Shown here in pieces: positions 22,542-64,000 of a stretch of 64,000 bases of DNA. Origin of the DNA: Candidatus Nanoarchaeia archaeon. Lineage in GTDB: Archaea > Nanobdellota > Nanobdellia > Jingweiarchaeales > Jingweiarchaeaceae. The DNA lies in assembly GCA_038874075.1 (NCBI GenBank), contig JAVZDD010000001.1:8701-72700 (forward strand), in the 5' to 3' direction. Position 1 is the stretch's first letter, and each line of letters begins with the position of its first letter. The notes below the pieces were generated by a model. That model made no database searches and was not told the DNA's origin. It saw only the letters and a list, made by a program, of their open reading frames with translations. A program made the position numbers and the translations under genes.

Positions 22542-25500
22542 ATGCTAAGATCATGGAAAAGATTGGTTATATTAGCGATATGGTGCTTATTCTTAATTAG
22601 TTTTTCAAAGGCTGAATGGTGGAATACTTCATTTCATTACAGAGTACCAGTTAATATAAGTACTGGAAACTATAACAGGACTGAATGGCCGATTGAGATA
22701 AGAATAAACTTTACACAATTAATTTATGATCTAAAGGGTAGATATGAGATATTTGATAATAATTCTATTCGTGTCATAGAATATGATTCAGATGGTTATG
22801 TAATAAATGATAACAACGGACTTGGAATCGTCTCACAATTTGACGAAGATGAAGATTACGATGCAACTTATAATGCTGTTGGTGAATTGGTCTTTCTATT
22901 AAATGGAACAACACCTGCTAATACCACCAGGTACTTTTACATTTATTTTGATACAATGGAAAATCAAAAACAACCTCCAAGCTACCAGACAAATTTGACA
23001 TATGTGTGGGATGATGAAGAATTTAATGTGAATAACTCAATTTACAGACTTTGGATTGATACGCTTAGAAACGATAATACATCCGGAATATATAAAGTAA
23101 ATTTTACAGATGGTAGACTGCTCACCGAAATTGCGCCAAGCGGAAGAACGCTTGAGTATGTTAGTTATTGGAATTCAACAAACCAATTCATGTATAACCT
23201 TTCCCACCAAATGAAAATTTTGTATGCAGGACCGGTAAGAATTGTTGTAGAACAGTTGGGAAATGAATCACTTTGGAACTCTAATGTTCAAACAAACCAA
23301 ACAAAATTAAGGAAGAAGTATGTCTTCTATGAGAAAAATCAGTGGATAAGGATAAATGAAACATTAAGTAATGTGCATACGACAGATATAGATAGGTGTT
23401 CGAACGATCCAACATATATACCTGGTGCTCCTGGAACAAGTGATTATATATACGCACTTGCGATTGACGCGAGGAGAGGAAATTTCTATGGAAATGCATA
23501 CGTAATAAATGATTGGGTATCTGTCTTTAATTCAAGTACTGCTGTTGGTATGGGTGTAATACTTTTATATAATTCAACACCAAACTATTTTGTAGACTAT
23601 AGTGACACTTGGGGTAGGATTGGAGTACAGTTGGACAATACAACAATTCCAATTAATGAAAGCATTTCTTTCTCTGCTATTTTGTATTTTAATAACATTT
23701 CTTCGCATAGCCCAATTGAAGAATTGAGGAATAGAGTATTTGCTCCTGTTTCCATTTCAATGGGCAATGCAAGCGCATGGTATATAAACATCACAACGAT
23801 AACTAATCACGACGTTTACAATCGAAAAGAAATGGTAAGTATAATTGCAAATGTCACTTCTGATCCTTGGAACCTTGTAAACTATGTAAATGCTACGCTT
23901 GATTTAAATTCTCTTTTAATGCAACTTACTTATGCTGGATTTAAGTATTATACTGGTAATTACACGTTTGCAAACAACGATACGACGGGTGTTTGGAACA
24001 TTACAACAATTGCTTACGATTCATCTTGGCAATTTTTAAATCAATCTTCAAAATTGATAAACCTAACAGATATTTACAACATGAACTTGACGATAAGAAA
24101 CAAGTATGGACCGATCTCAAGAAAGTTGATTACTGATGTGGGTATAAAAAATTATAGAAATGATACAAACATTGTTGGTATTCCGCAGTCAAATTTCAGT
24201 TGTAATTTAACAATTTTAGAATTTTCTGAAATCGGAAATGGCTTATACAACCTAAATTTTACTGCTCCAATTGAAATCGGTAATTATACATTATTCTGTA
24301 ATATAAATTTCAACGGAAACGTTGGCAATTCAACTGACAGCTATATTACAGAAGAAAATAAGACGCAAGTGAGTATTGAACTTTTACCAGACAATATCAC
24401 AGCCACAAATATCACTTCAACGAATTCACAGATTTTTGAGATGAATTTAACAGCAATTAACCTCAGAAATGGTACGGCATACAAAGCTAACATCACGATT
24501 TCTCTACCAACAAATTGGAGTGCAACGCAAACATTTTTCAATTGTGGTGATATTGCACCGAGTAACAATTGCACTATATATTTCAATGTGACGATTCCAA
24601 GTAAGACCCATTCTGGAAATTATGTAGTAAATGCGACGATTGCTTGGATGAATCCTGATGGATCAATAAATCAAACGAGTGACTTTTCGAATGTAAATGT
24701 TACATCGAACATTACTCTCTATATTCCTGAAAATGAACTAATTGCAGTGGTTGAGCATGGGAGAAATATGCAGATTGGAAACTTTACCTTAAATTCGCTT
24801 GGCAATGATCCTGTATCAAATATTAGTTTTTCATATCAAATTGCTGAAAACATATCCATCATCTTCACACCAAGTGATATTTCTTATTTGGATTCTGGAG
24901 AATCTATTGTTGTATTTGTAAACGTTTCTGTTCCGGCTGGCTACGCACCTGGAAATTACATAGGAAACATCACAATAGATACCGAAAACGATGGAAGCAA
25001 AACATTGTTATTGAACATAGATGTGCCATTGAACAGAACTTGGACAAGGATCCCAAGCGCATGTTATAAATATATAGCTGCACCTGTGGGTTTTGCATGC
25101 AATATCACAATAAATAACACAGGAAACGCTGAATTAAATTTTACCATACATCCAAATGCGACTTCCGATTCAATGGTAAATCAAACATGGCCGAATGTGA
25201 CGAGCATCTTCTTAGAAAAACAGACTTCTTATGTGCTGCCAATCTTTTATAATATCACTGGATTAAACAATGGAACATTTCAAACGACATATACAATAAC
25301 AGCAAACCAATCGGATGCAATTCCACAAAATTTAACAACGATCGTTAATATCACAATTTCACTTGGTCCTGAAATAAACATCACAATTTATCCAAGTTTA
25401 ACAGAACAGATGAGTGATATCGTAATAAATGCGAGTTTATATGATAGGTCTTATACTGGGATATCTTGGGTAAAAATAAATGTGACGAGACCCAATGGAA

Positions 25501-27680: not shown

Positions 27681-27693
27681 TTTAGGTGAGCAA

Positions 27694-28404
27694 ATGGTAA
27701 GGATAATAGGTGTGATATCTGGTAAGGGTGGAGTTGGTAAGACAACGGTCGTTGCTAATCTTGGACTAGCGCTTACTACAAAATTCAATAAAGAAGTGAT
27801 AATCATCGATTGTAACATTACAACATCTCATTTGGGTCTATACTTTGGTTTACATAGCGTGACAACGACATTAAACAATGTATTAAGGGGAGAAGCGATC
27901 ATTGAGGATGCAATTTATATGCATGAAAGTGGATTAAAAATCGTTCCTGCCTCTTTGGCAGCACATGATTTGATTGGTGTTGACATCATCATGCTTGAAA
28001 AAACATTGGAAAGATTATTCGGAAAGGCTGATTTTGTATTATTGGATTCTGCGCCTGGTCTTGGTAGGGAGGCATATGGTACAATAATTGCGAGCAAAGA
28101 AGTAATAATGGTCACGATTCCATATTCACCAGCAATAATTGATTTAATCAGATGTAATCAAGTGATCAAGGAGCTTGGTCCAAGGGCCCTTGGCATCGTA
28201 TTGAACATGGTCACTAGGGACAGATATGAGCTAACGGAGGAGGAAGTAAGTAATATCGTTGGGTTACCTGTGATCGGATCGATACCATATGATAAAAACA
28301 TACTGAAATCCCTTGCATTGAGAACACCTTTACTTAACTATAAACCAAAATCTAGAGCAAGTAAAGAGTTCATAAAACTTGCGAATAGGATTTTAGAACT
28401 ATAA
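27694..28404 (+). CDS. minD: MinD/ParA-family (SIMIBI) ATPase
   Basis: Deviant Walker A GKGGVGKTT near the N-terminus (MVRIIGVISGKGGVGKTTVVANLG), Walker B FVLLDSAPG; ATG at 27694 has a GGTGA Shine-Dalgarno-like motif 7 nt upstream, and the in-frame extension to 27652 overlaps the upstream gene. Confidence 0.85.
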   Translation: MVRIIGVISGKGGVGKTTVVANLGLALTTKFNKEVIIIDCNITTSHLGLYFGLHSVTTTLNNVLRGEAIIEDAIYMHESGLKIVPASLAAHDLIGVDIIMLEKTLERLFGKADFVLLDSAPGLGREAYGTIIASKEVIMVTIPYSPAIIDLIRCNQVIKELGPRALGIVLNMVTRDRYELTEEEVSNIVGLPVIGSIPYDKNILKSLALRTPLLNYKPKSRASKEFIKLANRILEL

Positions 28405-29490
28405 TCTCATTAATTCATCTTTTATTTTCTTTGCCTCATCTTCGAACATCTTCTGTAAGTTACTTACCTGTTCTCCTGTCTTTGAAATTTTTGTGTTTAA
28501 TTCATTTATTTTATCTGTGATCAATGTTATCTGCTGATTGAAATTCAAAATTTTCTCTTCATTTGCGGAGATCCTCTTGTTAATTTTGTCTATATCGTTT
28601 CCAAGTCTCTCAATTATTTCAGAAAACTTCTTGCCGTAATCCCTCATTTCGCTTTCCGTCTCCCCAATCTTCTGCACCGAAGCTTTTTGCTTCTCAATCG
28701 CCCCTTTCAATTCATCTATGTCCTTCCTTATGGAATCAAGCTGATCTGACACAAGTGAGAAATTAGATTGAAAATTCTTAAATAAATCTGCAATCTTTGC
28801 TTTACTCACTTCCTCTATGTGTTTTTGTAATTCTGTCTCAAATTTTGATGTCTCACTCTTCATTTCTTCTACTAATTTTTTTGCAATTGAAACTAATTCC
28901 TTCTCCACACGTTCCTTAACTGCATTCTTTATCCTTTCTTCCTTAAATTTGAAAATTTTTTTCAAATCCAATATTTCTTCATTTATTTTTTCAATTGCTC
29001 TTTTAGATTGTTTGGCTTCGTCTTGTAGTGTTGTGAGCGTCTCCTCAACCTTCAAAACTCTGTCCTGAACTTTTCTAATTTCTGTATGGGTATTTTTATA
29101 CTCATCGTCGCTTGCTTTCTTTATTTCGTTTATGAGCTTCTCTATATCTTCAAAACTTTTTTCTGTGGTAATTGCTTCTGGCTTTCTTTCTATTGGTATC
29201 ACTCCTTCTTGTTGTTGGACTTTCCTATTAAGAAGTTTTCTTGATATTGCATCAAGTTGGGAAGAAATTTGATTTATTTTTTCTGACTGCATGTTTGATG
29301 CATTTTTCAATTGTTGAATCTCTGGGAGTGAGGATAATGAATTCTCAATCTTCAATAATCTTTCATTCATCGCTGTTATTTGATTTCTTACTTCATCTAT
29401 CTCCTTCTGCCTCAAAGATTTTAACTTTCTCCTGAACTTCTCTTCTATTTTTTCATATTCCTTGATCCATTCTGGAATTTCTTCTTCCAT
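28399..29490 (-). CDS. Coiled-coil protein (E/K/Q-rich), convergent to minD
   Basis: 363 aa of near-continuous heptad-like repeat, no TM, no catalytic motif. Confidence 0.5.
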   Translation of the reverse strand: MEEEIPEWIKEYEKIEEKFRRKLKSLRQKEIDEVRNQITAMNERLLKIENSLSSLPEIQQLKNASNMQSEKINQISSQLDAISRKLLNRKVQQQEGVIPIERKPEAITTEKSFEDIEKLINEIKKASDDEYKNTHTEIRKVQDRVLKVEETLTTLQDEAKQSKRAIEKINEEILDLKKIFKFKEERIKNAVKERVEKELVSIAKKLVEEMKSETSKFETELQKHIEEVSKAKIADLFKNFQSNFSLVSDQLDSIRKDIDELKGAIEKQKASVQKIGETESEMRDYGKKFSEIIERLGNDIDKINKRISANEEKILNFNQQITLITDKINELNTKISKTGEQVSNLQKMFEDEAKKIKDELMRL

Positions 29491-50646: not shown

Positions 50647-51540
50647 TCACATTGCTCTGAGGATTCTTATCCTTTCTTGGATTGGTGGGTGTGTGGCAAA
50701 TAATGCATCTAATGGACTTCTATTTGGATCAACAAAGAAAAGGTGAGAAACCGCCTCACTCACATTCATACTTTTACCCATATTCATCTTCATTATTTTC
50801 TCTAATGCGCTTGCTAGCCCTTCTGGATACCTCGTCAATTTTGCAGCATCTGCATCTGCCAGAAATTCTCTTCTTCTGGATATCGCTGCTTGAACTAATC
50901 TCGTGGCAATTGGTGCAAATATCGCAAGAATAAGACCAATTATCAGGATTAAACCGGCACCTCTTTCTCCCCTTTCCCTTCTAAAACCAAACCTATAAGA
51001 GCGAAGTAACATGTGGCTAACAATTGCAACCAAACCAACTAACACAGCAACGAGTGTGGCGAACCTTATATCATAGTTTTTTATGTGTGAAATCTCATGA
51101 CCTATCACACCCTCTAATTCCATCCGATTCAGATTTTTCAATAGTGCCGTTGTAACTGCAATTGAAGAATGCGCTGGGTCCTTACCTGTTGCGAATGCAT
51201 TCATTTCATCACTTTCGATCACATATACCTTTGGTTTTGGTATCCCAGCAGCGATGCTCAAACCTTCAACAGTATTTATCAGATAAGCGTGTTCCCTTTC
51301 ATTCGCAGGTTTGGCATCTGTGGCAGCGAGCACAATCTCATCTCCGTAGTTGTAAGAAATAAAGATGTATGAAATTGCGATAATAAAAGCAAAGATGATG
51401 AAGATTGCGCTGAGCTCGGGTGCAAATATCAAACTGATCACATAAAAAAGAGCAAGAAGAAATATGAAAACAAGAATTACAAGAAAGATCGAGTCCCTCT
51501 TATTTTTCTCTATTTGTTCATAAAAACTTATTCTTTCCAT
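50647..51540 (-). CDS. htpX: HtpX-like M48 zinc metalloprotease
   Basis: HEXXH motif GHEISHIKNYD, N-terminal TM helices; 297 aa; adjacent to lemA. Confidence 0.85.
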   Translation of the reverse strand: MERISFYEQIEKNKRDSIFLVILVFIFLLALFYVISLIFAPELSAIFIIFAFIIAISYIFISYNYGDEIVLAATDAKPANEREHAYLINTVEGLSIAAGIPKPKVYVIESDEMNAFATGKDPAHSSIAVTTALLKNLNRMELEGVIGHEISHIKNYDIRFATLVAVLVGLVAIVSHMLLRSYRFGFRRERGERGAGLILIIGLILAIFAPIATRLVQAAISRRREFLADADAAKLTRYPEGLASALEKIMKMNMGKSMNVSEAVSHLFFVDPNRSPLDALFATHPPIQERIRILRAM

Positions 51541-51542
51541 TT

Positions 51543-52097
51543 CTATTCAAACTTCACTTTCACTGGCTCTCTCTCTTTTTCTTCTATCTCAAAAAACGGT
51601 CTCGTCTTCCTTCCCATCAATGAAGCAAACCAAACCCCAGGTATTGTTGTGACTAGGTTGTTATATTCAAGTGTTGAATCATTGAAAAACTGCCTGGCAT
51701 ATGCAATCTTGCTCTCAATCCCATCCAATTGTTCCTGCAGAAGCTTGAAATTCTCGCTTGCTCTCAATTGTGGATAGTTTTCAGCTATTGCAAATATCGT
51801 TTTTAATGCCCTTGTCAACTCTCCCTCTGCTCTTATTCTTTCACTTATGTTACCTGCCTTCATCATGTTTTCTCTTGCCTTTGTTACCATCTCAATTGCT
51901 TTCTTTTCATGCGCCATGTAACCCTTCACTGTTTCAACTAGATTTGGAACTAGGTCTGCCCTTTTTTTTAACTGCACATCTATCTGTGACCAAGCATTGT
52001 CAATCCTGTTTGAAAGCACAATTATTTTGTTTATGTAGTAAACACATATGAATGCTAGAATGACAACCACGCCAACAATTATCCAAAACAAACTCAT
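51543..52097 (-). CDS. lemA: LemA family protein
   Basis: N-terminal TM (FWIIVGVVVILAFICVYY) then LSNRIDNAWSQIDVQLKKRADLVPNLVETVKGY, the conserved LemA core; 184 aa. Confidence 0.85.
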   Translation of the reverse strand: MSLFWIIVGVVVILAFICVYYINKIIVLSNRIDNAWSQIDVQLKKRADLVPNLVETVKGYMAHEKKAIEMVTKARENMMKAGNISERIRAEGELTRALKTIFAIAENYPQLRASENFKLLQEQLDGIESKIAYARQFFNDSTLEYNNLVTTIPGVWFASLMGRKTRPFFEIEEKEREPVKVKFE

Positions 52098-52193
52098 GCA
52101 ATCACCTTTTATTTAAGGTGTTATATAAACTTAAATATTTTATGCGTACGTTAAACGATAAGTTAAAATTTTCATTTTTACTATTAAATTCAC

Positions 52194-54023
52194 ATGAATA
52201 AGAAACTGATCTTATTCTTAATGATCTCTTTTTCATTTATTTTGATTAATCCAGTTTACGCTGCATCAAAGTCCAAGACCTATTCTTTTCCTTCGATTTA
52301 TATTAACTTGAATTTACAAGAAGATGGTTCTATCATCGTTGCACAAAACAGAACTTATCTTTTCAAAGGAAGTTTTTCCTGGGCATATCTGGATTTTTTA
52401 AAGAAAGGTGCAAAGGACATTGATCTGATCGGTATTTACAATCCATATACGGGTGAGCTATACAGATACAATGTGGAAGAAGATTCAACACACTTGAAGG
52501 TGACTTGGTATTACACTGCAAGCAATGAACTCAAAACGTTTCTCATCGTTTACAAGATCATTGGTGCTGTGAAGAGATATGAGGACGTTGCTGAGTTTTA
52601 TTGGAAAGTGATTGAGGATCAGCATCCATATATTAACAATCTTTACGTGAATGTCACACTTCCAAAATCAAGTTCAAAGTTGTTCAAGATATTTGTGCAT
52701 GGTAAGGGAACACCAGGTGATATCAAATTTTCAAAAGACAACAGTTCAGCAATTGTAAGCTATCGCAACATACCACTGGACACTTTTGTTGAATTTAGAA
52801 TTCTTGCTTCACCAGACATTTTTCCAGACGTCCCATTAATAAATCAGAAGGCATATGAAAAAATCTTGGAGGAAGAAAAAACAAATTTCATTCTTAGCTC
52901 TATTGCCCCGCTACTTTTATTCATCATCCTGCCTTTATGCATGGTTATATTATACATCTATTATTACAAGAAGTATGGTACTGAATACAAGGTTGAGTAT
53001 GATCTCAAATACGATCCTGAGATACCAAGAGACATTCCTCCATTGGCGCTAGTGAACTTTTTTGAGGAAGAAAAAGAAGCACCGATCAGTCTAGCAGCAA
53101 GGGCATTCTTAGCCACAATATTTGATCTTGCAAGGAGAGGGTACATTGAAATAATTGAAGAGAAGAAAGAATCACTTTTTGGTTTAATTAAAAAAACAGA
53201 GCAACGATTTGTATTAACGAACAAAGGTAGAGAAGCTTATTATTCAAGATTGACTCCTCCCCAGCTCCTGCCATTCGAAAAGGATGTACTCCATTTATTA
53301 TTTACAACGATTTCAGAAAATGGAAATGAAGTTACAAGTACTGATATTACAGAATGGTGCAAGAAACACCCCCATCTGATACAGGGTAGGATTAAGAGCT
53401 TAGATGAGAGCGCGAGACATTGGTTCGAGCAAAATTATTTCAAAATATATGAGAGTGTTAGCGAGAAGAAGAGAGAAAAATATATATTATTCTTTACTGT
53501 TAATTTTACGATTCTAACTTTACTTTTCTTCTGGATATTGTTACCTAACATCCGCATACTCATTCAAGGTCTAATACTTGGACCATTTCTGGGTTATTTT
53601 ATTGGTAAGGCAATTACAAGGCCATTATCAAGACATACAAGGGAAGCGATGCTTGATAAAAAGAAGTGGGAAGCATTCAAAAGATACATTTCTGATTTTT
53701 CAGCAATGGAAAGCGCTCCATCTGTATTGATTCATCTCTGGGACAAATACTTGGTCTATGCAATTGTTTTGGGAGTAGCTGAGAAGTTACTTGAAAACAT
53801 AAAGAGATTGAGTGAGGAGAGAAATATCACATTCACACCTGTTGTTTGGTATCGTGGAACAACACCACTACACATAGGAGCCATGTCTCCTCAAGCCTTT
53901 TCCTCCTTCATTAGTAGCATGTCAGGTACAATAAGCTCCCTCAGTTCAGCTTCATCTGTTGGCGGTGGATTTGCTGGTGGGGGCGGTGGAGGTGGAGGTG
54001 GGGGTGGGGGTGGAGCTGGATAG
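52194..54023 (+). CDS. DUF2207-like membrane protein with C-terminal poly-glycine tail (typical LemA neighbour)
   Basis: Signal peptide, ~230-aa extracellular domain, TM helices (IAPLLLFIILPLCMVILYIYYY; ILTLLFFWILLPNI), C-terminus GGGFAGGGGGGGGGGGGGAG; 609 aa. Confidence 0.65.
   Translation: MNKKLILFLMISFSFILINPVYAASKSKTYSFPSIYINLNLQEDGSIIVAQNRTYLFKGSFSWAYLDFLKKGAKDIDLIGIYNPYTGELYRYNVEEDSTHLKVTWYYTASNELKTFLIVYKIIGAVKRYEDVAEFYWKVIEDQHPYINNLYVNVTLPKSSSKLFKIFVHGKGTPGDIKFSKDNSSAIVSYRNIPLDTFVEFRILASPDIFPDVPLINQKAYEKILEEEKTNFILSSIAPLLLFIILPLCMVILYIYYYKKYGTEYKVEYDLKYDPEIPRDIPPLALVNFFEEEKEAPISLAARAFLATIFDLARRGYIEIIEEKKESLFGLIKKTEQRFVLTNKGREAYYSRLTPPQLLPFEKDVLHLLFTTISENGNEVTSTDITEWCKKHPHLIQGRIKSLDESARHWFEQNYFKIYESVSEKKREKYILFFTVNFTILTLLFFWILLPNIRILIQGLILGPFLGYFIGKAITRPLSRHTREAMLDKKKWEAFKRYISDFSAMESAPSVLIHLWDKYLVYAIVLGVAEKLLENIKRLSEERNITFTPVVWYRGTTPLHIGAMSPQAFSSFISSMSGTISSLSSASSVGGGFAGGGGGGGGGGGGGAG
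53961..54019 (+). repeat. G-rich GGN codon tract (poly-Gly) on the + strand
   Basis: ggcggtggatttgctggtgggggcggtggaggtggaggtgggggtgggggtggagctgg. Confidence 0.9.
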
Positions 54024-54129: not shown

Positions 54130-55269
54130 TTATTCTTCTTTCTTCTTCTTGTAGAAGATTAGGTAGATTGCGTACACCACGACCAAGAACAGTACTAATG
54201 CACCTAAATTTGCAGGTTGTAACGCTCCTACGAAAAATCCAGTTGGCGCTACTTCTTCAGATGCTGGTGTGATTACTAACCCAGTTGTTCCTGGAGCACA
54301 GGTACCACAATCTTCCGCGCAGCTATCACAACTTTCCCCATTCTCACATATCCCATTACCACAAACAGCTAAGCAATCATTATCACTTAAAGAATTACAA
54401 TTAACTGGGCAACATCCATCTCCATTTGCACATGTAGTGATGGGTATGTTTGAACATGAAGCTATGCATGTGTTCGGATAATTGCAGACATCTAATGTGC
54501 ATGCATTGTTATCAACACAATCTAAATCCGATGTACAAAGTGGAGTAACACAAATACTGTCACATCTTATTTTCCCCTCCTCACAAGGTGGAATGCATGG
54601 TCTTGTCTCAGTTTCATTCGGTTTGTTCTTGGTTGTGTTGCAATTATTTAAGTCATTACATGTTCTAGTTCTTGTTTGAACATTGTTTATGCAATCTGAC
54701 CAGTCTGACCAACTTGTACATGTCCAATTCTCTTGGCATGGTGGTGGAGGTGGGGGTGGAGGCGGAGGTGGACAAGTTCCACAATCTTGAGGACAAGATG
54801 AGCATGTCTCTGCACCATTACAAGATCCATCTCCACAGTACGGTGTAGGTGGAGGACAAGTTCCACAATCTACTGGACAATTTGAACATGTTTCACCAGA
54901 TTCACATACACAATTACCACATTTATTTGTTGTAACAGTTAGGTTCAAATTCATCAAATTACCTGAATAACAAATTTGTGGTGCTTCATTCACACAGTAT
55001 CCTGCAACTTTAAAAGTAACAGTTTCATTAACCGCATCCACTTGCAATCCGTAATAACCTTGACCATTCCAAGTAATCGTATTAAAACTTGATTTTAATA
55101 CACCGTTCACATATGCTGCTACTAATGTGCCATCAGGAACCGGATTTCCATCAATAGAGGCATAACCTTCAAATGCACAAGGTATTGCAAAAGCACTAGA
55201 AATACTAAAAACCACCAATGCAATCAAAATTGCAATTAAATCCTTTTTTTTCATTTTGACCCTCATCAA
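54130..55269 (-). CDS. Secreted Cys-rich protein with three CG(N/D)G-x-C-E...C-x-x-C-P-x-DCGTC knots, a poly-Pro linker and a C-terminal TM anchor with basic tail
   Basis: Signal peptide MMRVKMKKKDLIAILIALVVFSISSAFA; CGNCVCESGETCSNCPVDCGTCPPP, CGDGSCNGAETCSSCPQDCGTCPPPPPPPPPPP, CGNGICENGESCDSCAEDCGTC; C-terminus APTGFFVGALQPANLGALVLFLVVVYAIYLIFYKKKKEE. Confidence 0.6.
   Translation of the reverse strand: MMRVKMKKKDLIAILIALVVFSISSAFAIPCAFEGYASIDGNPVPDGTLVAAYVNGVLKSSFNTITWNGQGYYGLQVDAVNETVTFKVAGYCVNEAPQICYSGNLMNLNLTVTTNKCGNCVCESGETCSNCPVDCGTCPPPTPYCGDGSCNGAETCSSCPQDCGTCPPPPPPPPPPPCQENWTCTSWSDWSDCINNVQTRTRTCNDLNNCNTTKNKPNETETRPCIPPCEEGKIRCDSICVTPLCTSDLDCVDNNACTLDVCNYPNTCIASCSNIPITTCANGDGCCPVNCNSLSDNDCLAVCGNGICENGESCDSCAEDCGTCAPGTTGLVITPASEEVAPTGFFVGALQPANLGALVLFLVVVYAIYLIFYKKKKEE
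54739..54772 (+). repeat. G-rich tract on + strand (encodes an 11-proline run on the - strand)
   Basis: ggtggtggaggtgggggtggaggcggaggtgga. Confidence 0.9.
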
Positions 55270-55325
55270 CTCAATTATTTTCTTCTTTTTAAATGTTTTT
55301 GATTACCATAAAAAAGATAAAAAAT

Positions 55326-58300
55326 TTATTCTATCTCTAACCTGTCACCCTGTGTCATATATATCCAGTATGGTCTATTTTGTTGGTCATTAAATTCAGT
55401 CAATGCCCATGGTAGTGGTGGTGGGTTGTTGCCCCATTCTGGATTGTAATACTTCCACATCGTTCCATCATAATACCATATCACTGTGTAATTCCCACTT
55501 ATTGATTCAAGCACATTCCAAACCGAGTAATCGCCACCCAACGAATCAATGTCTTCCAAGACCAGTCTTGGTAGGAAGAATCCATTCCATCCTGCATGTA
55601 GATTAATCGTTACATTGTAGTTCCCAGTTGTATCGAGCACGAATATTATCATTTCTGAATTTGTCATCACGTTTCCTGCAACATCCTTACATTTCACGTG
55701 ATATGCATACATCCCATCCTGCAATCCTGATAATTCATAGTAATGGTAAGTGCCATCTCCTTCTAATGTGTTCATTATGTAAGCCATTGTATCATATGAC
55801 CTACTCAAAACATCGAACTTGCATGTTGCTGGTTCATTTGTGAATACTTGCAACATAATACCTTCGCTTCCATCCAAGATTCCGCCTGGCGCTGAATTTA
55901 CGATCTCTGGTGGTGTAAAGTCAATTGGTACTCCTCTCTCTATTCTTCTCGTCACATTCCATCCTGCATTGTCTCTTATATTTATGTCCAACCAGTTACC
56001 TCCGCCGAGCGTGGTAATCACATAACAATATCCAATTTTTGTCAATGAATTGAAGTAACAAAGTGGGGGCAATGTGGCGTCTGTACTGTAGATTGGTTCT
56101 TGCAATCCTGAACTAGGTGTTAGATCAGTTATTGTGAAGTTCACAAACCAACCTAACATTGGTACGCTGTACTGTGTATCGGGTGTAATTGAAGGTGCAT
56201 ATGTATCAACAAACACATTCACATGCTCCGACCAGGTTGTCTTTCCAGCTTTGTCAACTGCTCTAACTCTGTAAGTGTGCATTCCATCTGAACTTACACC
56301 TGTGTAAGGTGATGTTACACTATTGACAATACTTCCATCAACTTCAATGTCAAACCTATCAAAGTTCGTGTCACTCCCACCGTTCCATATTACTTTATAA
56401 TCTCCATCTCTATCATACGGTGGATTATCAACATTCTGTGTTCCTATATTCACTGGTTGTGGTAGATAATTGTCTATCTTAACAACACCCCAAGCTATGT
56501 CATTTTTTCCATTTCCTGCCTTGTCATACACATAAACTTCCAAATGATAAGTGCCTTCTGGGGTACTTTCATAGATTGGAACCATGTATGTGATTGGTTC
56601 TGTTCCAGCATAGCATCTATACAACATGCTTGAATCTTCACTATCAATGTGACCAACAATTGTTCCTCCTCCACCTGTGAATACCATTATCTTAAAGCTC
56701 TTAGGATTGTCCTCTTTACATAAGAAGGAAACTTCTAACATCTCACCTGCTTTCTTCCAAACTGGTGTCAGTGGACTCTGTATCTCAACGGATGGCCACA
56801 CATTATCATATGTAAATCTAACATCTCTTGATTTCAAGCTATTTCCAAGATTGTCATAAGCGACTGCATATATCGTGTAGGTATCGGTCTGTTCTGGCAT
56901 CCATGTGATCATCCAACCATCTTGCTGTGAATCATCTAATCCTATTAGTTCTGGGTATTCACTTTCGTCTTCTCCATAAACCATCCTGTAGAACTCAACT
57001 CTTTCAATTCCGCTAACTGCATCAGCAGTTACGGCTTCTATTTCTATTGCAGCTTCGGAACCGCTTATATATTCATTATTGAGTGGTCTTATTATCGCAA
57101 CACTTTCTGGTTCTCCATTATCAACGATGACGATCACTTGTTCCGAATATCCTGTGTTTCCTACGTTGTCTGTCAATCTCGCAATTATACCATATGCCAA
57201 ACCATCTGTTGCTGTGGTCGTGTCCCATGAGTATGTACATTTATATTCATAACCAGGACTCGGACCTATGTATTCACAATCACTAACTTCATTCCATGTT
57301 TGTCCATTGTCTGTTGAAATTTCTATCTTCATCGGTTCTGGCACATTTGCTTCATCTACCAAAACTTGTATGTCAATTGTTCCTTTCACAAACATGTTAT
57401 TTTCTGGGTATTGAATTTCCAATGCTGGTGCTATTGTGTCAACATTTACCATGACCGAATCACTTCCAATATTTCCTGCATTGTCTGCTATTTCAACTTT
57501 CAGCTCTTGCTCTCCTTGGGGCAGTTCCTTATCGTTCGGTACCATTATCGTTCCATAACACATTCTATTCGTATTATCGTATGGTACGGATCCTAATGAT
57601 ATGCCACCAAGTGTTATATAGCAAGGTGTACCTGTTGTTATCCCTCCTGTAACTTGTCCTTCATACGAATCTAAAATATCTGCACTTATTTGGATCGGAT
57701 GACTACCTAAAAGATCATTTTCAAATGGTAAAGTTACCTCCACTTCTGGCGCATGATTGTCTATGCCAATCTTCGGTAAGTTCCAGATTGTTACTATATC
57801 TTGGATTACATCTGCTATGCAAGTTGGTGGACAGTTTTCCATGTATCCATCTTCACATCCGCACTGCATCATAATTGAGTGATATACTTCTCCTAAGCTA
57901 TTTCCCATGTTTCCAAGATTGTCATCAACTGAGACAGCTAAAAACACTACACCATCTGGTATCCCACTTGGATTTGGTATGGTTGCATAACCTTGACATT
58001 CTTTTGCTTCAGCATTATATACGAGTGTTCCATCCGTCTCAAGTTCTACGATCTTAAATTCTGGTAACAAATCAATCAAGTAAGCATAGCACTGCCTACC
58101 ATCTTCTATCCCAACATTGCACATTCCACTTAATGGATTTTCACAAGGTCCGTGTGGATTTGTCAAGTCTTCTGCTAATGTTACGATTGGTATATCTTCT
58201 CCGTCAGAATACCAACCATCAACTGGTTTCAAAATTAGGATGTGCGGTGGTGTGTTGTCTACTTTATGATATTGCACATGTTCTTGTTCAACATTGCCAA

Positions 58301-61300
58301 GCGCATCCTCAGCATACCACCTTATCTCATGTAAGCATTCCTCTCCTAAATAGAATGTTGTTTTAAGATTGCAATTCTCATCTGTGTAGATATCCTTTTC
58401 CTCTATTTTTGTATCAACTTCACCATCACAGTTTGAATCCCACCATATCTCATAATGTAATTTCTCAGGTCCTGCAGCACACATTTCTTGTTTATCGAGA
58501 GCTGTTAATGTTATTGGTGTTTGGGATGTTATCCAGTAACCATTATCCCATTGGGGTTGTCCGATGCTCTTGGTTGTTTCTGGCGGTGTGGTATCCACTC
58601 TCTCAACTTGTGTATGTGTATCTTCTTTATTTCCCAATGCATCTACACAATACCATTCTAGGGTGTGTTTGGAATCTTCACTATATTGTATTGGCTCTGT
58701 GTACAAAGTCCAATCTTGCTTCAACACATCATCCAAGTAGTATCTATAGTAGATTTTTACATCATCTACTGGATGTGGTGATTGGTCTTCACACGTCAAT
58801 ACTATCTTTGTGTTTTGTTTTATGTAATAGTCACAATCTCCTGAAGCAGCACAAGGTAATTCATCGCAAGGTTTGCTAAACCCATCGAAGTACTTTGTTG
58901 AAACTGGTGGTTTGTTATCAACATAAACACATTGTCTTTTTGTTTGTTCAGTCTTATCAACATTATCAACGGAATAAAACTCTATTAAGTGGCAGGAATC
59001 TTCTGTGATTTTGAACGGACCAGTATAGGTCAACCAATCTCCTGAACCAGTTGCATCTTCGCATGCTGTTTGGCTCTCACAATAAGTATCATCAACTAAA
59101 GTCACTCTATACTTTGTTTCCTTTATTCCTGATTTGTGAGGTCCTGTGTCCTCAACTGTTAATGTGATTGGAGTTTGCGATGTAATCCATTTCGGATAGC
59201 CACCTTGTCCTTCAACTAGTGGTTGACCATACGTCTTGGTTGTTGTTGGTGCTGTCTTGTCAACATAGAATACCTCCACATCTTCTATCATTTCATTTCC
59301 TAATGCATCCCAGCATCTTATGTGGAGTTCATGTTTGGTTTCTTCTGGGAAGCTTATCGGGAATTTATCATACCATCCGTAAAATTTCTGATAGTCATCA
59401 TCAAGATAATAACCCCACTCACAGTAGACACCGCCTACATTGCAACCTCTCCCTGTTGGATCTGGATCTGTCATTTGTACATCTATAGTTGTAATACCAT
59501 CGATAAAGCAGACATCATTTGGATTTTGTGGCAAGCAATCTCCATGATGAGGACCTACTATTGTCTTGGTTATTTCTGGTGGGACTGAATCGACTCTGAA
59601 GTATTCAACATCAACTTGGTTTTGATTACCAAGTGCATCCACACAATAATATTCTAAATCATGTAATGAGTCTTCTTGGAATGTGAAAGTGTATTTGGAT
59701 TCTCCAGACACATCAGCACAGCAATAATCACCTTCCATTGTTCCTCCAAATTGAGTACAGTATTGAGTTGTTAACCATGGTTGTTGTGGATCATCGAATG
59801 ATATTCTATAGCACATCTTCTCATGGTCAACTGGATGTGGTACTTGGTTATCCCAGCTGTCGTCGCAATCCAAGGTTATTGTTGTTACTTTGTCACTAAC
59901 CCAGTAATCGCAATTCTTAATATTAGTTATTTCTATATCGTCCACATACCAACCTTCATAATTGTTAAACAACGAATCTATTGTATCAAACCTGAACTTT
60001 ATTTTTACATTTTTTCCTGTATATGCGGACAAGTCAATCGTTACTTGACGCCATTGGTCTTCTGGGCCGGTTGAAGTCCAAACTTTAACCCAACCTGAAC
60101 CGTCATTCACGTAAACTTCTCTTGCATCGTAAGGAGAAAGTTTCTCTGTATTTTCATAGCTCCAGAATGTCAATTGTGAATTATCACCTAAGATAATGTC
60201 TTTTGAGATCAACTCTCCAGAATTTTCAAAACCTGTATCATAATTGTGGTCTGATTCTTTATTGTAAGCCCAGCTGTGAGTTGGACTGTGACTTCTGTAT
60301 TCAGTTATGTGCCACAAGCCTGTGGCAGTCCATTCACCTGCTCCGTTTTCTACATTATCACTAAAGGTTGTTGATTCACATTTTATCTTTGGCTCTCCAA
60401 TTGTTTTTATTCCCTGTGGTGGGACTGAATCAACAATGTCATATTCCACATGCAACTGCTCAGTATTGCCCAATTCATCCACACAGTACCACTCTAATAC
60501 ATGAGCTGAATCTTTTTCTTTATATATCACCAAAGGTTCATTGTCGTATACAACATATTCCTTGAAATCTCCTGGCTGTTCTCCTACAAGGTAGTCTCTA
60601 TAATATATTTTGACATGATTTACTGGATGTGGATCTTGATCTGAGCAACTAACTGTTATTAGAGTTTTTTGTGTTATGAAATAGCATCCGTCGGTTGGAT
60701 TTGGCATATTTGGATAATACAATGCTTGCTCGTCTGATGTGCAAGCATGCTTAGGATTGTCTAATGTTTTTTGTGAAACTGGTGGTTTAGTATCAACTAT
60801 GTCCAATTCTACATGTTCGCTTTCTTTGTTACCTAAAGCATCAACACAGTACCAAGTAAGTCTGTGATAGGATTCATAATTTGGTAAATCTTCGTAATAG
60901 AATTTAATATAATTACCAACAGTTTCTTCTTTTACAGTTTGCCAATTATCTTCCCAATTCATCTTCCATTCAATCTTATAGTGAATCTTCACGTCATCTA
61001 CTGGATGAGGTTGTTGATCAGCGCAAGAAAGTTCTATAGGGGTTTCGTCTGTCATAAACCAGCAATCGTTGATTCCGTACTGCGTCTTTTCTTCTTGTGT
61101 ACACTCATGTTTTGGGGTTCCTAGTGATTTCTGTGAAACAGGAGGTGTGTTCTCGACGAATACACATTGAGTTTTTATTGGTTCTTTGTTTCCAAGCAAG
61201 TCAACACTATAATATTCTATCATGTGACACGACTGCTCAGTTTTGTAGAAAGGTCCTGTATATTCGTTCCATCCTTCACTTTCATAGCTGTGAATGGGTT

Positions 61301-64000
61301 GACAGTAGGTACTTGGATCAAGACAATAATTATCATTAACAAGTGTGTTCATCCAATAAATCTTGTACATGCCAACAGCGCATATTTCTCCGCCATCTGT
61401 TGCTGCGAGTGTTATTGGTGTCTGACTCGTTATCCATTTCGGATAGCCACCTTGTCCTTCAACTAGTGGTTGACCATATGTCTTGGTTGTTGTTGGTGGG
61501 ACTGTATCCACTTTATCAATTTCTACATGGATTTGTTCTGTATTGCCTAAAACATCCACACAATAATACTCTAATGTGTGTACAGAATCTTCTGGGAAGG
61601 TGAATTCTACATTACCATCTTCATCAACAAACCATTGTGTAAATTGACCATCATCGACTTTATATCTCCAATAAACTTTAACATGATTTGATGGGTGTGG
61701 TTCTTGGTCAACGCAATCTAATGTTATTTTTGTCTGTTGCGTTATCCAATAATCACAACCTTGGCTTTCTCCACATTCTATCTTTGGTTCCCCTATTATC
61801 TTTGTTGTTACGGGTGCTTTATCATCAACAATATCCAATTCAAAATGATGATTCTCTTCCCATCCGCAGCCATCTACTGCCCAGTATTCTATTAAATGGT
61901 AAGACTCTTTGCTCAATGTGATTGTCACGTCTTGGTTTTCTTCACCCATACCTTCCTGATCCAATAGCCATTGATCATTTGGATTGACCTTGTAGTAAAC
62001 TTTCCAATATATTTTTGTCTTGTCTGCATGCTCTCCTGTTTTTTGTGGGTCAGGGTCTTCAGCATGAAGTGTTATTTGAGTCCCTGTTTTCACAAATTGA
62101 CACCCATTTGTTAATTGAATACCTTGAGGTAGATTAGCGGCTGTTATTTCATCACTTGTGCATTCATGCGATACTCCTCCTGCAGGAATCAAAGTTTTAG
62201 TTGTTATTGGGGCAAGCGTGTCTCTGACAAATGAAACACCCAGACACTCAGAAATCTTTCCCCAATTCTCTGCTGTGTCCTTTCCTCTTAATCTTATGTA
62301 ATGTGTTCCATCTGATAACTTACTTGCATCAACGAAAGCACCTATGTATGCACATTTGTAACCATCCCACCTCGTGAAGTTATAAGAAGTGTCCATCCAA
62401 ATTCCGCTCCAAGGAGCTGGAATTGGTGGTATCACAACATCAATAAAGTATTCTCCACCTTGGATCTTTGATTCTTGATCACAAACTGTTGCATTGAGCC
62501 ATGTATTATTTCCACAAATCAAGTATTCATTCGGATATAGAACATTATCTAAGTAAATATCATAAGCACAATCTGGTGGGAGTATGTCCTCTTCAAAATA
62601 GGTACATTCACAGTTACCCCAATTCCCAGCATTATCTTGTGCTCTCACACAAACCCAATTCACTCCATCACTCTTAAAAACAATGTTCTTCTTCAAAAGG
62701 TATTCTACTAATTTGTCTAAATCAAAACTACCATCATCCGCTGGATATATCGTGCCTTTAACAGGTGCCTCGGGGTCGCATGAGGCATAGGAATCCGGAC
62801 CAACGAAAAATTCAGCTGTTTTTATCACTGTACAAGTATCCTCTGTCTTGGCTGTTAAGTTGAATACTCCATTGTTGTAATGTGGAGTCACGACAACATT
62901 CGAAGTTGTTGGACCAATCGTGTCTCTTGGACCCAATAACGGATCACAATAATCATTGCAACCCATTCCACTCGTTAATAAGCCACAACCATTCTCTGTA
63001 CATGTTTGATATCCATAATAACATATCCCATCTTTTACCGTGCCAGGTTCCGGACAATATTGAGAGTCGCGATAGTCACATACACACTCAGTATCACAAC
63101 TTCCACTATAATAGCAAGTATCATCAATTATCTTGGGTTGACATTCTATTCCAAAACCATCACACTCAGCTGAACAAGTTCTTATGCCATTGCCTATTGG
63201 TATTACTGGACCACCATCCTGCCCATCAGAATCAGCACAAGTGTGGGAAATTTCTTGTTGTTTTGGAACACATTCAAGTATTTTCAGGTTACACTCACCA
63301 GGCACCTCTGGCCTATAATCAAATGTTAGTAAGTAATTGTCTGGGTTATAATCGCACACTGCTATTTCAGGATAAAAGTATGGTTCACCAAAAGATTCAC
63401 AATCTGAATCGCTTGAACAACAAAAATTTCCATTAGTTCCATTTTTTCCTATACAGTCTAAGTCAGCGCAGTCTATGTAACCATCACAATCATTATCATA
63501 ACCATCAGTACAGTTTGTCTCAAGAGGTGCTGGTTCTTCATTCCATATCAAGGTGAATAAGCCACCTGTTTCAAAACATATAAGTTTAACTCCTCCACAT
63601 TCCTTTTCAAAGCATGAAGGACACTCTATGCTCCCGCACGTCCAATTTTTACTACAGGGTTTCTTACCCACTACATAACAACCATTAGGCCCGCAAGAGT
63701 AGTCATCTCCCCATTCTTGAATCTCTCCTGTTCCGACACCGATGCATTCTATACCAGTAGTGCAATCTAATTCGTCACAGTCTTGCGTATCGCTATACTG
63801 GCAAGTACAATCTTGTAAACATGTTCCACTATGATACCAAACATTTCCAACACACTCACCTTCACAATCGTCATTTGAATCACACTCAGCATCACATTTC
63901 TCTACGCTACAAGTGTGTGTTATTGTTGGGTCTCCTTGCGTGCACGCATCCTTATTTTCATCACAAACGCTTATGAAAGCATTTCTAAAATCCCAAGTTG
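55326..64000 (-). CDS. Third giant secreted/surface Cys-rich repeat protein (>2890 aa), N-terminus beyond the window edge
   Basis: ORF called 55326-63671 from a GTG; reading frame stays open on the minus strand to base 64000. Cys-rich N-terminal region with acidic DNDCDGYIDCADLDC (TSP3/Ca-binding-like) motif. More than ten repeats of a ~110-130 aa beta-sandwich-like domain (recurring PP...TK..G.P and HxxEYYCVDxLGN motifs). No C-terminal TM. Confidence 0.8.
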   Translation of the reverse strand, partial: TWDFRNAFISVCDENKDACTQGDPTITHTCSVEKCDAECDSNDDCEGECVGNVWYHSGTCLQDCTCQYSDTQDCDELDCTTGIECIGVGTGEIQEWGDDYSCGPNGCYVVGKKPCSKNWTCGSIECPSCFEKECGGVKLICFETGGLFTLIWNEEPAPLETNCTDGYDNDCDGYIDCADLDCIGKNGTNGNFCCSSDSDCESFGEPYFYPEIAVCDYNPDNYLLTFDYRPEVPGECNLKILECVPKQQEISHTCADSDGQDGGPVIPIGNGIRTCSAECDGFGIECQPKIIDDTCYYSGSCDTECVCDYRDSQYCPEPGTVKDGICYYGYQTCTENGCGLLTSGMGCNDYCDPLLGPRDTIGPTTSNVVVTPHYNNGVFNLTAKTEDTCTVIKTAEFFVGPDSYASCDPEAPVKGTIYPADDGSFDLDKLVEYLLKKNIVFKSDGVNWVCVRAQDNAGNWGNCECTYFEEDILPPDCAYDIYLDNVLYPNEYLICGNNTWLNATVCDQESKIQGGEYFIDVVIPPIPAPWSGIWMDTSYNFTRWDGYKCAYIGAFVDASKLSDGTHYIRLRGKDTAENWGKISECLGVSFVRDTLAPITTKTLIPAGGVSHECTSDEITAANLPQGIQLTNGCQFVKTGTQITLHAEDPDPQKTGEHADKTKIYWKVYYKVNPNDQWLLDQEGMGEENQDVTITLSKESYHLIEYWAVDGCGWEENHHFELDIVDDKAPVTTKIIGEPKIECGESQGCDYWITQQTKITLDCVDQEPHPSNHVKVYWRYKVDDGQFTQWFVDEDGNVEFTFPEDSVHTLEYYCVDVLGNTEQIHVEIDKVDTVPPTTTKTYGQPLVEGQGGYPKWITSQTPITLAATDGGEICAVGMYKIYWMNTLVNDNYCLDPSTYCQPIHSYESEGWNEYTGPFYKTEQSCHMIEYYSVDLLGNKEPIKTQCVFVENTPPVSQKSLGTPKHECTQEEKTQYGINDCWFMTDETPIELSCADQQPHPVDDVKIHYKIEWKMNWEDNWQTVKEETVGNYIKFYYEDLPNYESYHRLTWYCVDALGNKESEHVELDIVDTKPPVSQKTLDNPKHACTSDEQALYYPNMPNPTDGCYFITQKTLITVSCSDQDPHPVNHVKIYYRDYLVGEQPGDFKEYVVYDNEPLVIYKEKDSAHVLEWYCVDELGNTEQLHVEYDIVDSVPPQGIKTIGEPKIKCESTTFSDNVENGAGEWTATGLWHITEYRSHSPTHSWAYNKESDHNYDTGFENSGELISKDIILGDNSQLTFWSYENTEKLSPYDAREVYVNDGSGWVKVWTSTGPEDQWRQVTIDLSAYTGKNVKIKFRFDTIDSLFNNYEGWYVDDIEITNIKNCDYWVSDKVTTITLDCDDSWDNQVPHPVDHEKMCYRISFDDPQQPWLTTQYCTQFGGTMEGDYCCADVSGESKYTFTFQEDSLHDLEYYCVDALGNQNQVDVEYFRVDSVPPEITKTIVGPHHGDCLPQNPNDVCFIDGITTIDVQMTDPDPTGRGCNVGGVYCEWGYYLDDDYQKFYGWYDKFPISFPEETKHELHIRCWDALGNEMIEDVEVFYVDKTAPTTTKTYGQPLVEGQGGYPKWITSQTPITLTVEDTGPHKSGIKETKYRVTLVDDTYCESQTACEDATGSGDWLTYTGPFKITEDSCHLIEFYSVDNVDKTEQTKRQCVYVDNKPPVSTKYFDGFSKPCDELPCAASGDCDYYIKQNTKIVLTCEDQSPHPVDDVKIYYRYYLDDVLKQDWTLYTEPIQYSEDSKHTLEWYCVDALGNKEDTHTQVERVDTTPPETTKSIGQPQWDNGYWITSQTPITLTALDKQEMCAAGPEKLHYEIWWDSNCDGEVDTKIEEKDIYTDENCNLKTTFYLGEECLHEIRWYAEDALGNVEQEHVQYHKVDNTPPHILILKPVDGWYSDGEDIPIVTLAEDLTNPHGPCENPLSGMCNVGIEDGRQCYAYLIDLLPEFKIVELETDGTLVYNAEAKECQGYATIPNPSGIPDGVVFLAVSVDDNLGNMGNSLGEVYHSIMMQCGCEDGYMENCPPTCIADVIQDIVTIWNLPKIGIDNHAPEVEVTLPFENDLLGSHPIQISADILDSYEGQVTGGITTGTPCYITLGGISLGSVPYDNTNRMCYGTIMVPNDKELPQGEQELKVEIADNAGNIGSDSVMVNVDTIAPALEIQYPENNMFVKGTIDIQVLVDEANVPEPMKIEISTDNGQTWNEVSDCEYIGPSPGYEYKCTYSWDTTTATDGLAYGIIARLTDNVGNTGYSEQVIVIVDNGEPESVAIIRPLNNEYISGSEAAIEIEAVTADAVSGIERVEFYRMVYGEDESEYPELIGLDDSQQDGWMITWMPEQTDTYTIYAVAYDNLGNSLKSRDVRFTYDNVWPSVEIQSPLTPVWKKAGEMLEVSFLCKEDNPKSFKIMVFTGGGGTIVGHIDSEDSSMLYRCYAGTEPITYMVPIYESTPEGTYHLEVYVYDKAGNGKNDIAWGVVKIDNYLPQPVNIGTQNVDNPPYDRDGDYKVIWNGGSDTNFDRFDIEVDGSIVNSVTSPYTGVSSDGMHTYRVRAVDKAGKTTWSEHVNVFVDTYAPSITPDTQYSVPMLGWFVNFTITDLTPSSGLQEPIYSTDATLPPLCYFNSLTKIGYCYVITTLGGGNWLDINIRDNAGWNVTRRIERGVPIDFTPPEIVNSAPGGILDGSEGIMLQVFTNEPATCKFDVLSRSYDTMAYIMNTLEGDGTYHYYELSGLQDGMYAYHVKCKDVAGNVMTNSEMIIFVLDTTGNYNVTINLHAGWNGFFLPRLVLEDIDSLGGDYSVWNVLESISGNYTVIWYYDGTMWKYYNPEWGNNPPPLPWALTEFNDQQNRPYWIYMTQGDRLEIE
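59185..59251 (-). repeat. 67-bp near-identical intragenic repeat, copy 1 (encodes YGQPLVEGQGGYPKWIT)
   Basis: atccatttcggatagccaccttgtccttcaactagtggttgaccatacgtcttggttgttgttggtg recurs at 61432-61498 with one mismatch. Confidence 0.9.
61432..61498 (-). repeat. 67-bp near-identical intragenic repeat, copy 2
   Basis: One mismatch (atacg vs atatg) relative to 59185-59251; flanking sequence within the repeated protein domains is much more diverged. Confidence 0.9.

Follow-up and report, generated by a model that had tools for sequence, protein, structure and literature searches.

A giant surface protein of a DPANN archaeon and the membrane protein encoded downstream of it: a candidate docking cassette

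Introduction

A 64,000 nt stretch of DNA from a Candidatus Nanoarchaeia archaeon (contig JAVZDD010000001.1 of assembly GCA_038874075.1, positions 8,701 to 72,700; hereafter the window) ends within a leftwards-transcribed gene for a giant protein, and the next gene downstream codes for a small membrane protein, here called the partner. The giant is probably a host- or glycan-binding fibre that docks non-covalently on the partner, with its C-terminus close to the cell. Two observations carry this reading: the partner gene is present at all 27 loci in which a giant with the same conserved C-terminal domain (CTD) could be assessed, and three relatives that lack this domain have instead part of the partner, with its membrane anchor, fused to their own C-termini. 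A prediction made earlier from the letters of the window (the original prediction) had seen no C-terminal transmembrane anchor in the giant and had proposed that the protein is either secreted or attached through a partner; the conserved anchor gene fits with attachment.

DPANN archaea need physical contact with a host, a contact for which their giant surface proteins are the foremost candidates. DPANN genomes are known to encode proteins of this kind, acidic and rich in immunoglobulin (Ig)-like domains (PMC10266531), and the giant by itself is an ordinary and unsurprising DPANN surface protein that is already in NCBI, annotated in truncated form. Little is known of how such giants stay attached to the cell, and the locus described here offers a concrete and testable anchoring scheme.

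A partner gene follows CTD-bearing giants

The last ~95 residues of the giant form the CTD (Table 1), which we propose to be a docking module. None of three CTDs matches a Pfam family at E-values up to 10, and AlphaFold gives a mixed alpha/beta model with predicted local distance difference test (pLDDT) values of about 67-94. The order of genes around the giant is shared with that around another protein, P0002 (locus L002; 66-86% identity), which identifies P0002 as the orthologue. Comparison of the two shows the CTD to be the most conserved part of the giant: identity is 98% over the last 48 residues and 60-66% in the two main alignment blocks, and it falls to 32-39% in the N-terminal modules, which vary most.

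A search of 1.84 billion representative sequences with a CTD profile finds 431 proteins (E ≤ 1e-3), so that no fewer than 431 clusters, formed at 50% identity, carry the CTD. The proteins that contain it are 71-3,660 residues long, with Big_13 or PKD arrays. Of 73 near-full matches, 60 have the CTD ending no more than 10 residues from the C-terminus. Two Aenigmatarchaeota loci (L013 and L014) are arranged differently: the CTD is internal and is followed by ~150-230 residues of Cys-rich sequence, including a teneurin-like GIDNDGNGLIDCADPGC, and the partner gene still lies downstream.

The partner is composed, in order, of a signal peptide, an N-terminal domain (N-domain) of ~90 residues, repeats of the form CGNGxCExGExCxxCPxDCGxC, a poly-Pro segment, a Cys-knot referred to here as the W-C-W module (E 1.4e-10), a membrane segment and a KKKKEE tail. 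Its hydrophobic segments are at residues 3-30 and 339-371. The N-domain spans residues 24-115, with F28, G30, G51 and Y68 among its invariant positions; those of the CTD include GWN, FFLP, WYYDG and PYWI. No Pfam family matches the whole partner, and five N-domains searched at E-values up to 10 match none, apart from a single hint of CarboxypepD_reg (E 0.02). Partner residues 173-220 (CQENWTCTSWSDWSDCINNVQTRTRTC...), a module that also precedes the membrane anchor of self-anchored giants, presumably resemble a thrombospondin type 1 repeat (WxxW...RxR...C), although Pfam detected none. The N-domain is 82% identical to that at the orthologue locus. Those partners that are complete at both ends have a signal peptide and a C-terminal membrane segment only, followed by a short basic or otherwise charged tail.

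All seven loci that were reached through their proteins have a partner homologue directly downstream of the giant and on the same strand; two of these seven were held out of the N-domain model and were still recovered (E 1e-23 and 2e-13). A scan of the GTDB genomes with a single protein found no relative, and a degenerate DNA pattern for the CTD, which samples one CTD subfamily, was used on GTDB genomes and metagenomes. This pattern alone found three Aenigmatarchaeota genomes, in each of which the partner is present (E 4e-27 to 8e-16). The partner is also present at 18 of the 18 metagenome loci with enough downstream sequence, a nineteenth having just 35 nt downstream. One metagenome locus repeats an earlier contig and was merged with it, so that the total is 27 loci (21 clusters at 90% identity), all of them with a partner 5-150 nt downstream of the giant on the same strand and with N-domain matches of E 1e-13 to 5e-39. 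We found no description of this combination of giant and partner in the literature searched, which is not proof of novelty; the docking cassette appears to be undescribed so far.

Three self-anchored relatives carry part of the partner

Five relatives of the giant have a C-terminal membrane anchor of their own, and all five are without the CTD. Three of their loci were examined (P0021, P0028 and P0029), and none has a partner-type gene downstream. In P0026, P0028 and P0029 the W-C-W module of the partner stands in the tail, immediately before the anchor (E 4e-11 to 2e-9), and this module was found in none of the CTD-bearing giants. One arrangement is therefore a giant ending in the CTD together with a second protein made of N-domain, linker, W-C-W module and anchor, and the other is a single giant that runs directly into linker, W-C-W module and anchor; such a pattern is a textbook sign that two proteins work as a unit, and it suggests that giant and partner do so.

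Start, export signal and composition of the giant

Translation of the minus strand (window 55326-63998) yields 2,890 sense codons followed by one stop, a TAA at 55326-55328, which bears out the original prediction of a frame that stays open all the way from 55326 to the edge. The start listed for it at 63671 is a GTG, as had been noticed, and the frame runs on upstream to the edge of the window. The remaining 558 codons were read from a near-identical public record (L001, described below), in which the true start lies 1,672 nt past the window edge; residues are numbered here for the full-length protein, and a window residue is the full-length residue minus 558. The start in L001 is an ATG with a GGGGGTG ribosome-binding site ahead of it and a TTTATAAA box ~75 nt upstream, and a stop in the same frame lies 14 codons before the ATG. 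The full-length giant has 3,448 residues, a mass of 382 kDa without the signal peptide and an isoelectric point (pI) of 4.2.

The N-terminus, MNLPRDLIDFLYDKKANLKASTKLKVFLGLVFTFLVVALALQFVIA/SD, is signal-peptide-like. The original prediction had pointed to the upstream sequence as the place where either a true start with a signal peptide or a stop without one would be seen, and what is found there is the ATG, the ribosome-binding site and this N-terminus. Residues ~20-49 are the sole hydrophobic stretch of the full-length protein, in agreement with the predicted absence of a C-terminal transmembrane anchor. Nearly all relatives share this type of N-terminus, and many close the hydrophobic segment with P-x-[FIV]-A, a cleavage-type motif that fits the -3/-1 rule of signal peptidase. 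The giant has VIA/SD here, and its signal peptide is probably cleaved, with residue 47 (Ser) as the predicted start of the mature protein. Neither a C-terminal hydrophobic helix nor a PGF motif was found in the giant, which ends ...YMTQGDRLEIE, and a PGF-CTERM/archaeosortase or other C-terminally membrane-anchored surface protein was rejected for these reasons.

The part of the giant within the window contains 119 Cys (4.1%), 16.5% Asp plus Glu and 6.2% Lys plus Arg, and Cys density peaks in the first 400 window residues at 8-15 per 100. The Cys-rich and acidic character that had been predicted is correct as to composition, but the stretch rich in Cys, which had been taken to be N-terminal, is not where the protein begins, as 558 further residues lie beyond the window.

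Proposed anchoring scheme and alternatives

In the scheme that we favour, the giant would be exported by its Sec-type signal sequence, the signal peptide would then be cleaved, and the CTD would dock non-covalently on the N-domain of the downstream type-I membrane protein, so that the fibre is tethered to the cell. With the CTD proposed to dock in this manner the C-terminus would be proximal to the cell, and the variable end with its CBM96 and Cys-rich modules would be the outward, ligand-binding tip. An Ig domain is ~4 nm long, and a rod built of the domains described below would project its tip roughly 80-100 nm, where it could attach to the glycans or proteins of a host cell or of another surface; calcium and disulfides would stiffen the stalk. 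A host-surface glycan or protein is suggested as the target by analogy with other DPANN giants (PMC10266531).

A broader claim is more evenly balanced, namely that CTD and partner N-domain constitute an undescribed archaeal docking pair comparable to cohesin and dockerin, by which DPANN archaea hang a class of Ig-array proteins on a small membrane pedestal, and that this joint is interchangeable in evolution with fusion to the W-C-W module and an anchor. The anchoring scheme, if confirmed, would define two new domain families, would give the polarity of the fibre, with the carbohydrate-binding and Cys-rich end outward, and would supply a handle for finding and classifying the attachment proteins of uncultured archaea.

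Several points weigh against the docked fibre. The adjacency of giant and partner genes could instead reflect some other shared role, for example in export or folding, and the oligo-T tract between them means that separate transcription may apply. The DNA-motif scans cover one CTD subfamily only, and the comparison with self-anchored relatives comprises three loci only. A Foldseek search of the PDB with the C-terminal model returns generic Ig matches, with PorU on top at a low TM-score, and assigns no fold to the CTD. The giant is depleted in N-x-S/T sequons, with 13 in residues 47-3448 where shuffled sequence has 25 ± 4.4, and this sets it apart from typical archaeal surface glycoproteins. 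Its binding to a host, its glycan specificity and its binding of calcium are predicted properties, and the hydrophobic core of its signal sequence, at ~21 residues, is compatible with an uncleaved signal-anchor.

The last of these points leads to the alternative that survives best, although we regard it as unlikely: the giant would sit in its own membrane by an uncleaved N-terminal signal-anchor, for which a core of this length is enough, and the CTD would be the distal tip that contacts the host, with the downstream protein a co-receptor or unrelated. Conservation of the CTD above all other parts would be expected if it binds a conserved ligand. The same alignment shows the N-terminal modules to be the most variable, however, as expected for a ligand-binding tip at that end, and the small residues at -3/-1 of the N-termini form a cleavage-type motif across the family. 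Relatives carry a C-terminal membrane anchor in place of the CTD, preceded by the partner's own W-C-W module, which places the C-terminus proximal to the cell in this family.

Improbable, and ranked lower, is an S-layer-type pair, in which the giant is a SlaA-like canopy or lattice protein and the partner a SlaB-like stalk, the two forming an envelope and not an adhesive fibre. The gene order and the logic are those of such a pair, in that a large protein, rich in Ig-like domains and devoid of a membrane segment, comes first and a smaller one with a membrane helix at its C-terminus comes second, and comparable proteins of the DPANN archaeon Nanobdella have been put forward as SlaA-like and SlaB-like (bioRxiv 10.1101/2023.10.27.564410). 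With 3,448 residues and a linear run of ~21 Ig-like domains, however, the giant greatly exceeds known S-layer proteins in size and is more like a fibre than they are, a single genome region has several different giants, and modules are gained and lost between close relatives. The partner has no predicted coiled-coil stalk, and the depletion of N-glycosylation sequons noted above also argues against an S-layer role.

We give still less weight to the proposal that the giant is freely released, being shed after cleavage as a soluble glycan-binding or matrix protein to which the neighbouring gene provides no anchor. The absence of any membrane segment past the signal sequence would suit a shed protein, as would the CBM96 module, the founding member of CBM96 being one that binds alginate (PMC9971899), but neither the strict co-occurrence of CTD and partner gene (27 of 27 informative loci) nor the complementary fusion pattern of the self-anchored relatives would be expected of it.

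Integrity of the assembly

A database search with the giant retrieves a 3,377-residue NCBI protein that is 100% identical by BLASTP and annotated as 'DNRLRE domain-containing protein, partial [Candidatus Parvarchaeota archaeon]'; its contig, JAPDLF010000001.1 of GCA_025920735.1, is L001. Window and L001 are 99.9% identical over the gene, with 7 single nucleotide polymorphisms (SNPs) in 8,458 nt, of which 3 are non-synonymous, and the next 9.9 kb are 100% identical. All 7 differences between window and L001 thus lie inside the giant gene (window 57036-63070), and the surface protein may be where variation between strains is concentrated. L001 contains a 98-N scaffold gap at 20131-20228, corresponding to window 55543, where the window is continuous without missing bases, and this gap accounts both for the truncated record and for a spurious 71-residue open reading frame.

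The repeat units of the OmpL47 type that make up the middle of the giant are 22-48% identical to each other at the protein level, and DNA repeats within the gene are at most 126 nt long and at most 90% identical by blastn, with one 70-nt stretch of 97% identity by megablast. The latter is found at window 59182-59251 and 61429-61498, where it codes for part of TKTYGQPLVEGQGGYPKWITSQTPITL, and the two units to which it belongs share only ~48% identity elsewhere, which suggests recent gene conversion within the gene. Intact orthologues or paralogues of 1.6-3.9 thousand residues with the same architecture, typically with ~10 units, are found in 36 other clusters. The gene is repetitive and leaves the window, and its NCBI record is labelled partial, so that a collapsed assembly of repeats, raised in the original prediction, or a spurious long frame or pseudogene might be suspected, but the divergence of the units and shortness of the DNA repeats, the independent assembly with the same structure save 7 SNPs, the gap that explains the label and the intact relatives make an artefact extremely unlikely.

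The giant gene has no similarity at the DNA level to the other 55 kb of the window, and the SNPs are scattered; a diversity-generating retroelement target was rejected because there is no template-repeat match in the remaining 55 kb and because of this scatter.

Domain architecture of the giant

The modules beyond the window were read from L001. Residues 48-103 have a weak Big_1-like match, and residues 248-405 match CBM96 (PF24517) at 141 bits (cut-off 26) and DNRLRE (NF033679) at 107.5 bits (cut-off 34). Disintegrin-like Cys-rich modules occupy residues 408-530, with Disintegrin (PF00200) scoring 44-53 bits at residues 408-470 (cut-off 35.1). Neither RGD nor KGD occurs anywhere in the giant, and an RGD-type disintegrin function was rejected.

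The Cys-rich block as a whole (residues 405-930) contains 65 Cys in 526 residues and continues into the window, where residues 559-930 have no Pfam match at E-values up to 10. A module of ~90 residues can be read directly from the sequence in two copies, at about residues 545-632 and 773-873. Between them lies an acidic motif, ETNCTDGYDNDCDGYIDCADLDC, which aligns with the C-rich domain of teneurin-4 (PDB 7plp) at E 0.002, with the eight acidic calcium ligands and the Asn all kept. In the teneurin-4 structure these nine residues coordinate three calcium ions, and two of the three sites are geometrically like those of thrombospondin type 3 (TSP3) repeats (PMC9058538). The original prediction of calcium-binding TSP3-like repeats holds for this motif but not for repeats: the DNDCDGYIDCADLDC motif is present once in the giant, NF033662, the acidic double-disulfide repeat model, scores 32 bits against a cut-off of 41, and ~8 of 37 aligned family members, the giant included, carry the motif. 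Conservation of the predicted calcium motif is thus complete with respect to the teneurin-4 ligands and limited within the family, and the motif is best seen as an optional module and not a repeat array. It may act as one calcium site without the giant being a repeat protein of this kind.

Two Ig-like domains precede the main array, and their DNAGN and DTAEN columns are the most conserved across homologues. The array itself consists of 11 units of ~105-120 residues, as found by our own hidden Markov model (HMM) built from eight units, and the YYCVD-x-LGN ... VD-x-x-PP-x-T-K signature that had been predicted does recur, every 105-120 residues. NF047446, the OmpL47-type domain model, matches five or more stretches (162.2 bits, E 2.9e-48, cut-off 40). 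The Leptospira OmpL47 equivalog model NF047441 scores 140.7 bits, under its cut-off of 250, so that it is the domain type only that is shared.

An AlphaFold model of two units, made with 33 aligned sequences, consists of two beta-sandwiches with pLDDT 96 and a predicted template modelling (pTM) score of 0.85. Searches of PDB sequences with the units found no solved relative, and the best Foldseek matches of the model in the PDB are tandem FN3 domains, the phage lambda tail-tip protein and the BIg domains of SiiE (E ~1e-5, 7-14% identity). By this model the fold of the unit is generic FN3/Ig-like. The prediction of more than ten tandem beta-sandwich-like domains is borne out, as there are ~21 consecutive FN3/Ig-like domains; among the folds that had been put forward for the unit, Ig-like agrees with the FN3 and BIg matches, whereas cadherin, PKD and HYR are not the best matches.

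Two pairs of Cys covary strongly across 292 units from 35 proteins, although these units are related by descent and the counts are not independent. Cys19 and Cys25 are both present in 140 units and both absent from 143, with one only in 9; for Cys39 and Cys90 the corresponding numbers are 155, 122 and 15. This covariation indicates a loop staple (19/25) and a cross-sheet disulfide (39/90) between the 'ITLxC' and 'YYC' strands. The HMM search breaks unit 6 in two, and a domain is nested in the Cys19-Cys25 loop of this unit. This insert scores 31.3 bits with NF038128, just above the cut-off of 30, and 22.8 bits (E 7.5e-5) with PF20773 (InhA-like_MAM), under the cut-off of 26.9, and it is common to one relative only, P0017. 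The last unit contains a WDSNCDGEVD loop, kept in the family consensus as WDxNCDGxxD, which is a candidate calcium-binding site.

Eight further Ig-like domains lie between the array and the CTD. Pfam Big_13 (PF19077) matches the C-terminal third of the giant at 82.1 bits (E 4.6e-23, cut-off 27), and D-x-A/L-G-N signatures occur every ~95-145 residues across the eight, the last of which was modelled as a beta-sandwich. A profile of the C-terminal two domains has a weak PKD-domain match only among PDB sequences.

Table 1. Features of the giant gene, the spacer and the partner gene in the window; residues are those of the full-length giant.
Feature	Position	Strand	Residues	Basis or remark
Giant gene, part in window	55326..64000	-	559-3448	Codons 559-3448 and stop; open frame
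Cys-rich region	62883..63998	-	559-930	Cys map
Single acidic double-disulfide motif of teneurin C-rich/TSP3 type, ETNCTDGYDNDCDGYIDCADLDC	63435..63521	-	718-746	PDB 7plp match
Two Ig-like domains ahead of array	62226..62882	-	931-1149	DNAGN, DTAEN signatures; spacing
Array of 11 OmpL47-type FN3/Ig-like units	58263..62225	-	1150-2470	Own HMM; NF047446
Choice-of-anchor-J/MAM-like jelly-roll, nested in Cys19-Cys25 loop of unit 6	59895..60377	-		~160 residues
DxNxDG-type loop WDSNCDGEVD, last OmpL47-type unit	58413..58445	-		Regular expression match
Eight Big_13/Big_3-type Ig-like domains	55626..58262	-	2471-3349	Pfam Big_13, Big_3_2
Conserved CTD (~95 residues), proposed docking module	55329..55625	-	3350-3448	GWNGFFLP...WYYDG...FNDxxxRPYWI..DRLEIE
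Spacer, 71 nt	55255..55325	-		Oligo-T tracts right after stop, A/T-rich box, GAGG ahead of partner ATG
Partner gene, 374 residues	54130..55254	-		Next gene downstream of giant; translation

Neighbouring genes

The elements of the spacer between giant and partner suggest a terminator or promoter role for it. Beyond the cassette (window 50647-54023) are genes for a DUF2207 membrane protein, LemA and an M48 peptidase, the last two of which fall past the end of L002; upstream of the giant are Lon-like, 209-residue and flavin reductase genes. In two other loci (L003, 15912-20832; L006, 15808-19735) the partner is followed by a second giant with CBM96, Golvesin_C and disintegrin-like modules, giving the order giant-partner-giant.

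The window encodes two other giants, both on the plus strand, of which the first is described below. The second (22542-27680) has 1,712 residues, with NPCBM_assoc and MG2 domains, a membrane segment at 1603-1636 and a short coiled-coil tail. Genes around it (21102-22532 and 27652-28404 on the plus strand, 28399-29490 on the minus strand) encode coiled-coil proteins of 476 and 363 residues and a ParA/MinD-type ATPase, which overlaps its 3' end.

Comparison with known systems

Leptospira OmpL47 is surface-exposed and is discussed together with the elastin-binding adhesin OmpL37 in PMC2935396 (see also PMC2698987). The 11 units of the giant match the OmpL47-type domain model well over its cut-off, but the giant is archaeal, about ten times longer and not an orthologue, it has two disulfide-type Cys pairs in most units, and its AlphaFold model is an FN3/Ig-like sandwich and not a membrane barrel. 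With the C-rich domain of teneurins and the TSP3 repeats (PDB 7plp; PMC9058538) it shares all nine ligand positions of ETNCTDGYDNDCDGYIDCADLDC; it differs from them in having a single copy and only part of the teneurin Cys pattern, in a module that is optional in the family.

The giant is also like Salmonella SiiE (PDB 2yn3/2yn5) and the RTX adhesins in being a tandem Ig rod with a proposed role for calcium and ligand modules at one end, and SiiE is among the best structural matches to the two-unit model (TM-scores 0.51-0.55). It differs from these in that it lacks GGxGxD repeats and a type I secretion signal and has a Sec signal peptide, and in that its proposed anchor is a separate membrane protein and not an outer-membrane retention module. 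An RTX adhesin was rejected on the absence of the GGxGxD motif and the Sec-type N-terminus.

The SPEARE giants of Nanohaloarchaeota are given, in the part of PMC10266531 that deals with them (Hamm et al. 2019 as cited there), as membrane-bound proteins of 8,900-9,400 residues with a VirB4/TraG-like ATPase domain. The giant resembles them in coming from a DPANN archaeon with a small genome, in its size and acidity (pI about 4), Sec signal, runs of Ig/FN-like domains and proposed host binding. It differs in having no ATPase and no membrane segment after residue 49, and in ending in a docking-type CTD; as no ATPase family is found in it with Pfam or NCBIfam, and no later membrane segment, membership of SPEARE was rejected. 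The first giant of the window (6517-21105, plus strand; 4,862 residues) has NPCBM_assoc, DUF2341, MG2 and Ig-like domains, a hydrophobic segment at 4464-4486, a HerA/DUF87 P-loop ATPase domain at 4523-4617 and a coiled-coil tail, and thus has the architecture described for SPEARE, an extracellular Ig array with a VirB4/TraG-like ATPase (PMC10266531).

Finally, the cassette can be set beside SlaA and SlaB of Sulfolobales and the cohesin-dockerin pairs of cellulosomes. No sequence relationship to either was detected, three CTDs and five partner N-domains giving no cohesin or dockerin match in Pfam at E-values up to 10, and docking is here a prediction. The likeness is one of organisation: a large protein without a membrane segment would be held by a smaller protein anchored in the membrane or the wall, the gene for the giant comes first and that for the anchor follows, and the putative docking domain is modular and terminal.

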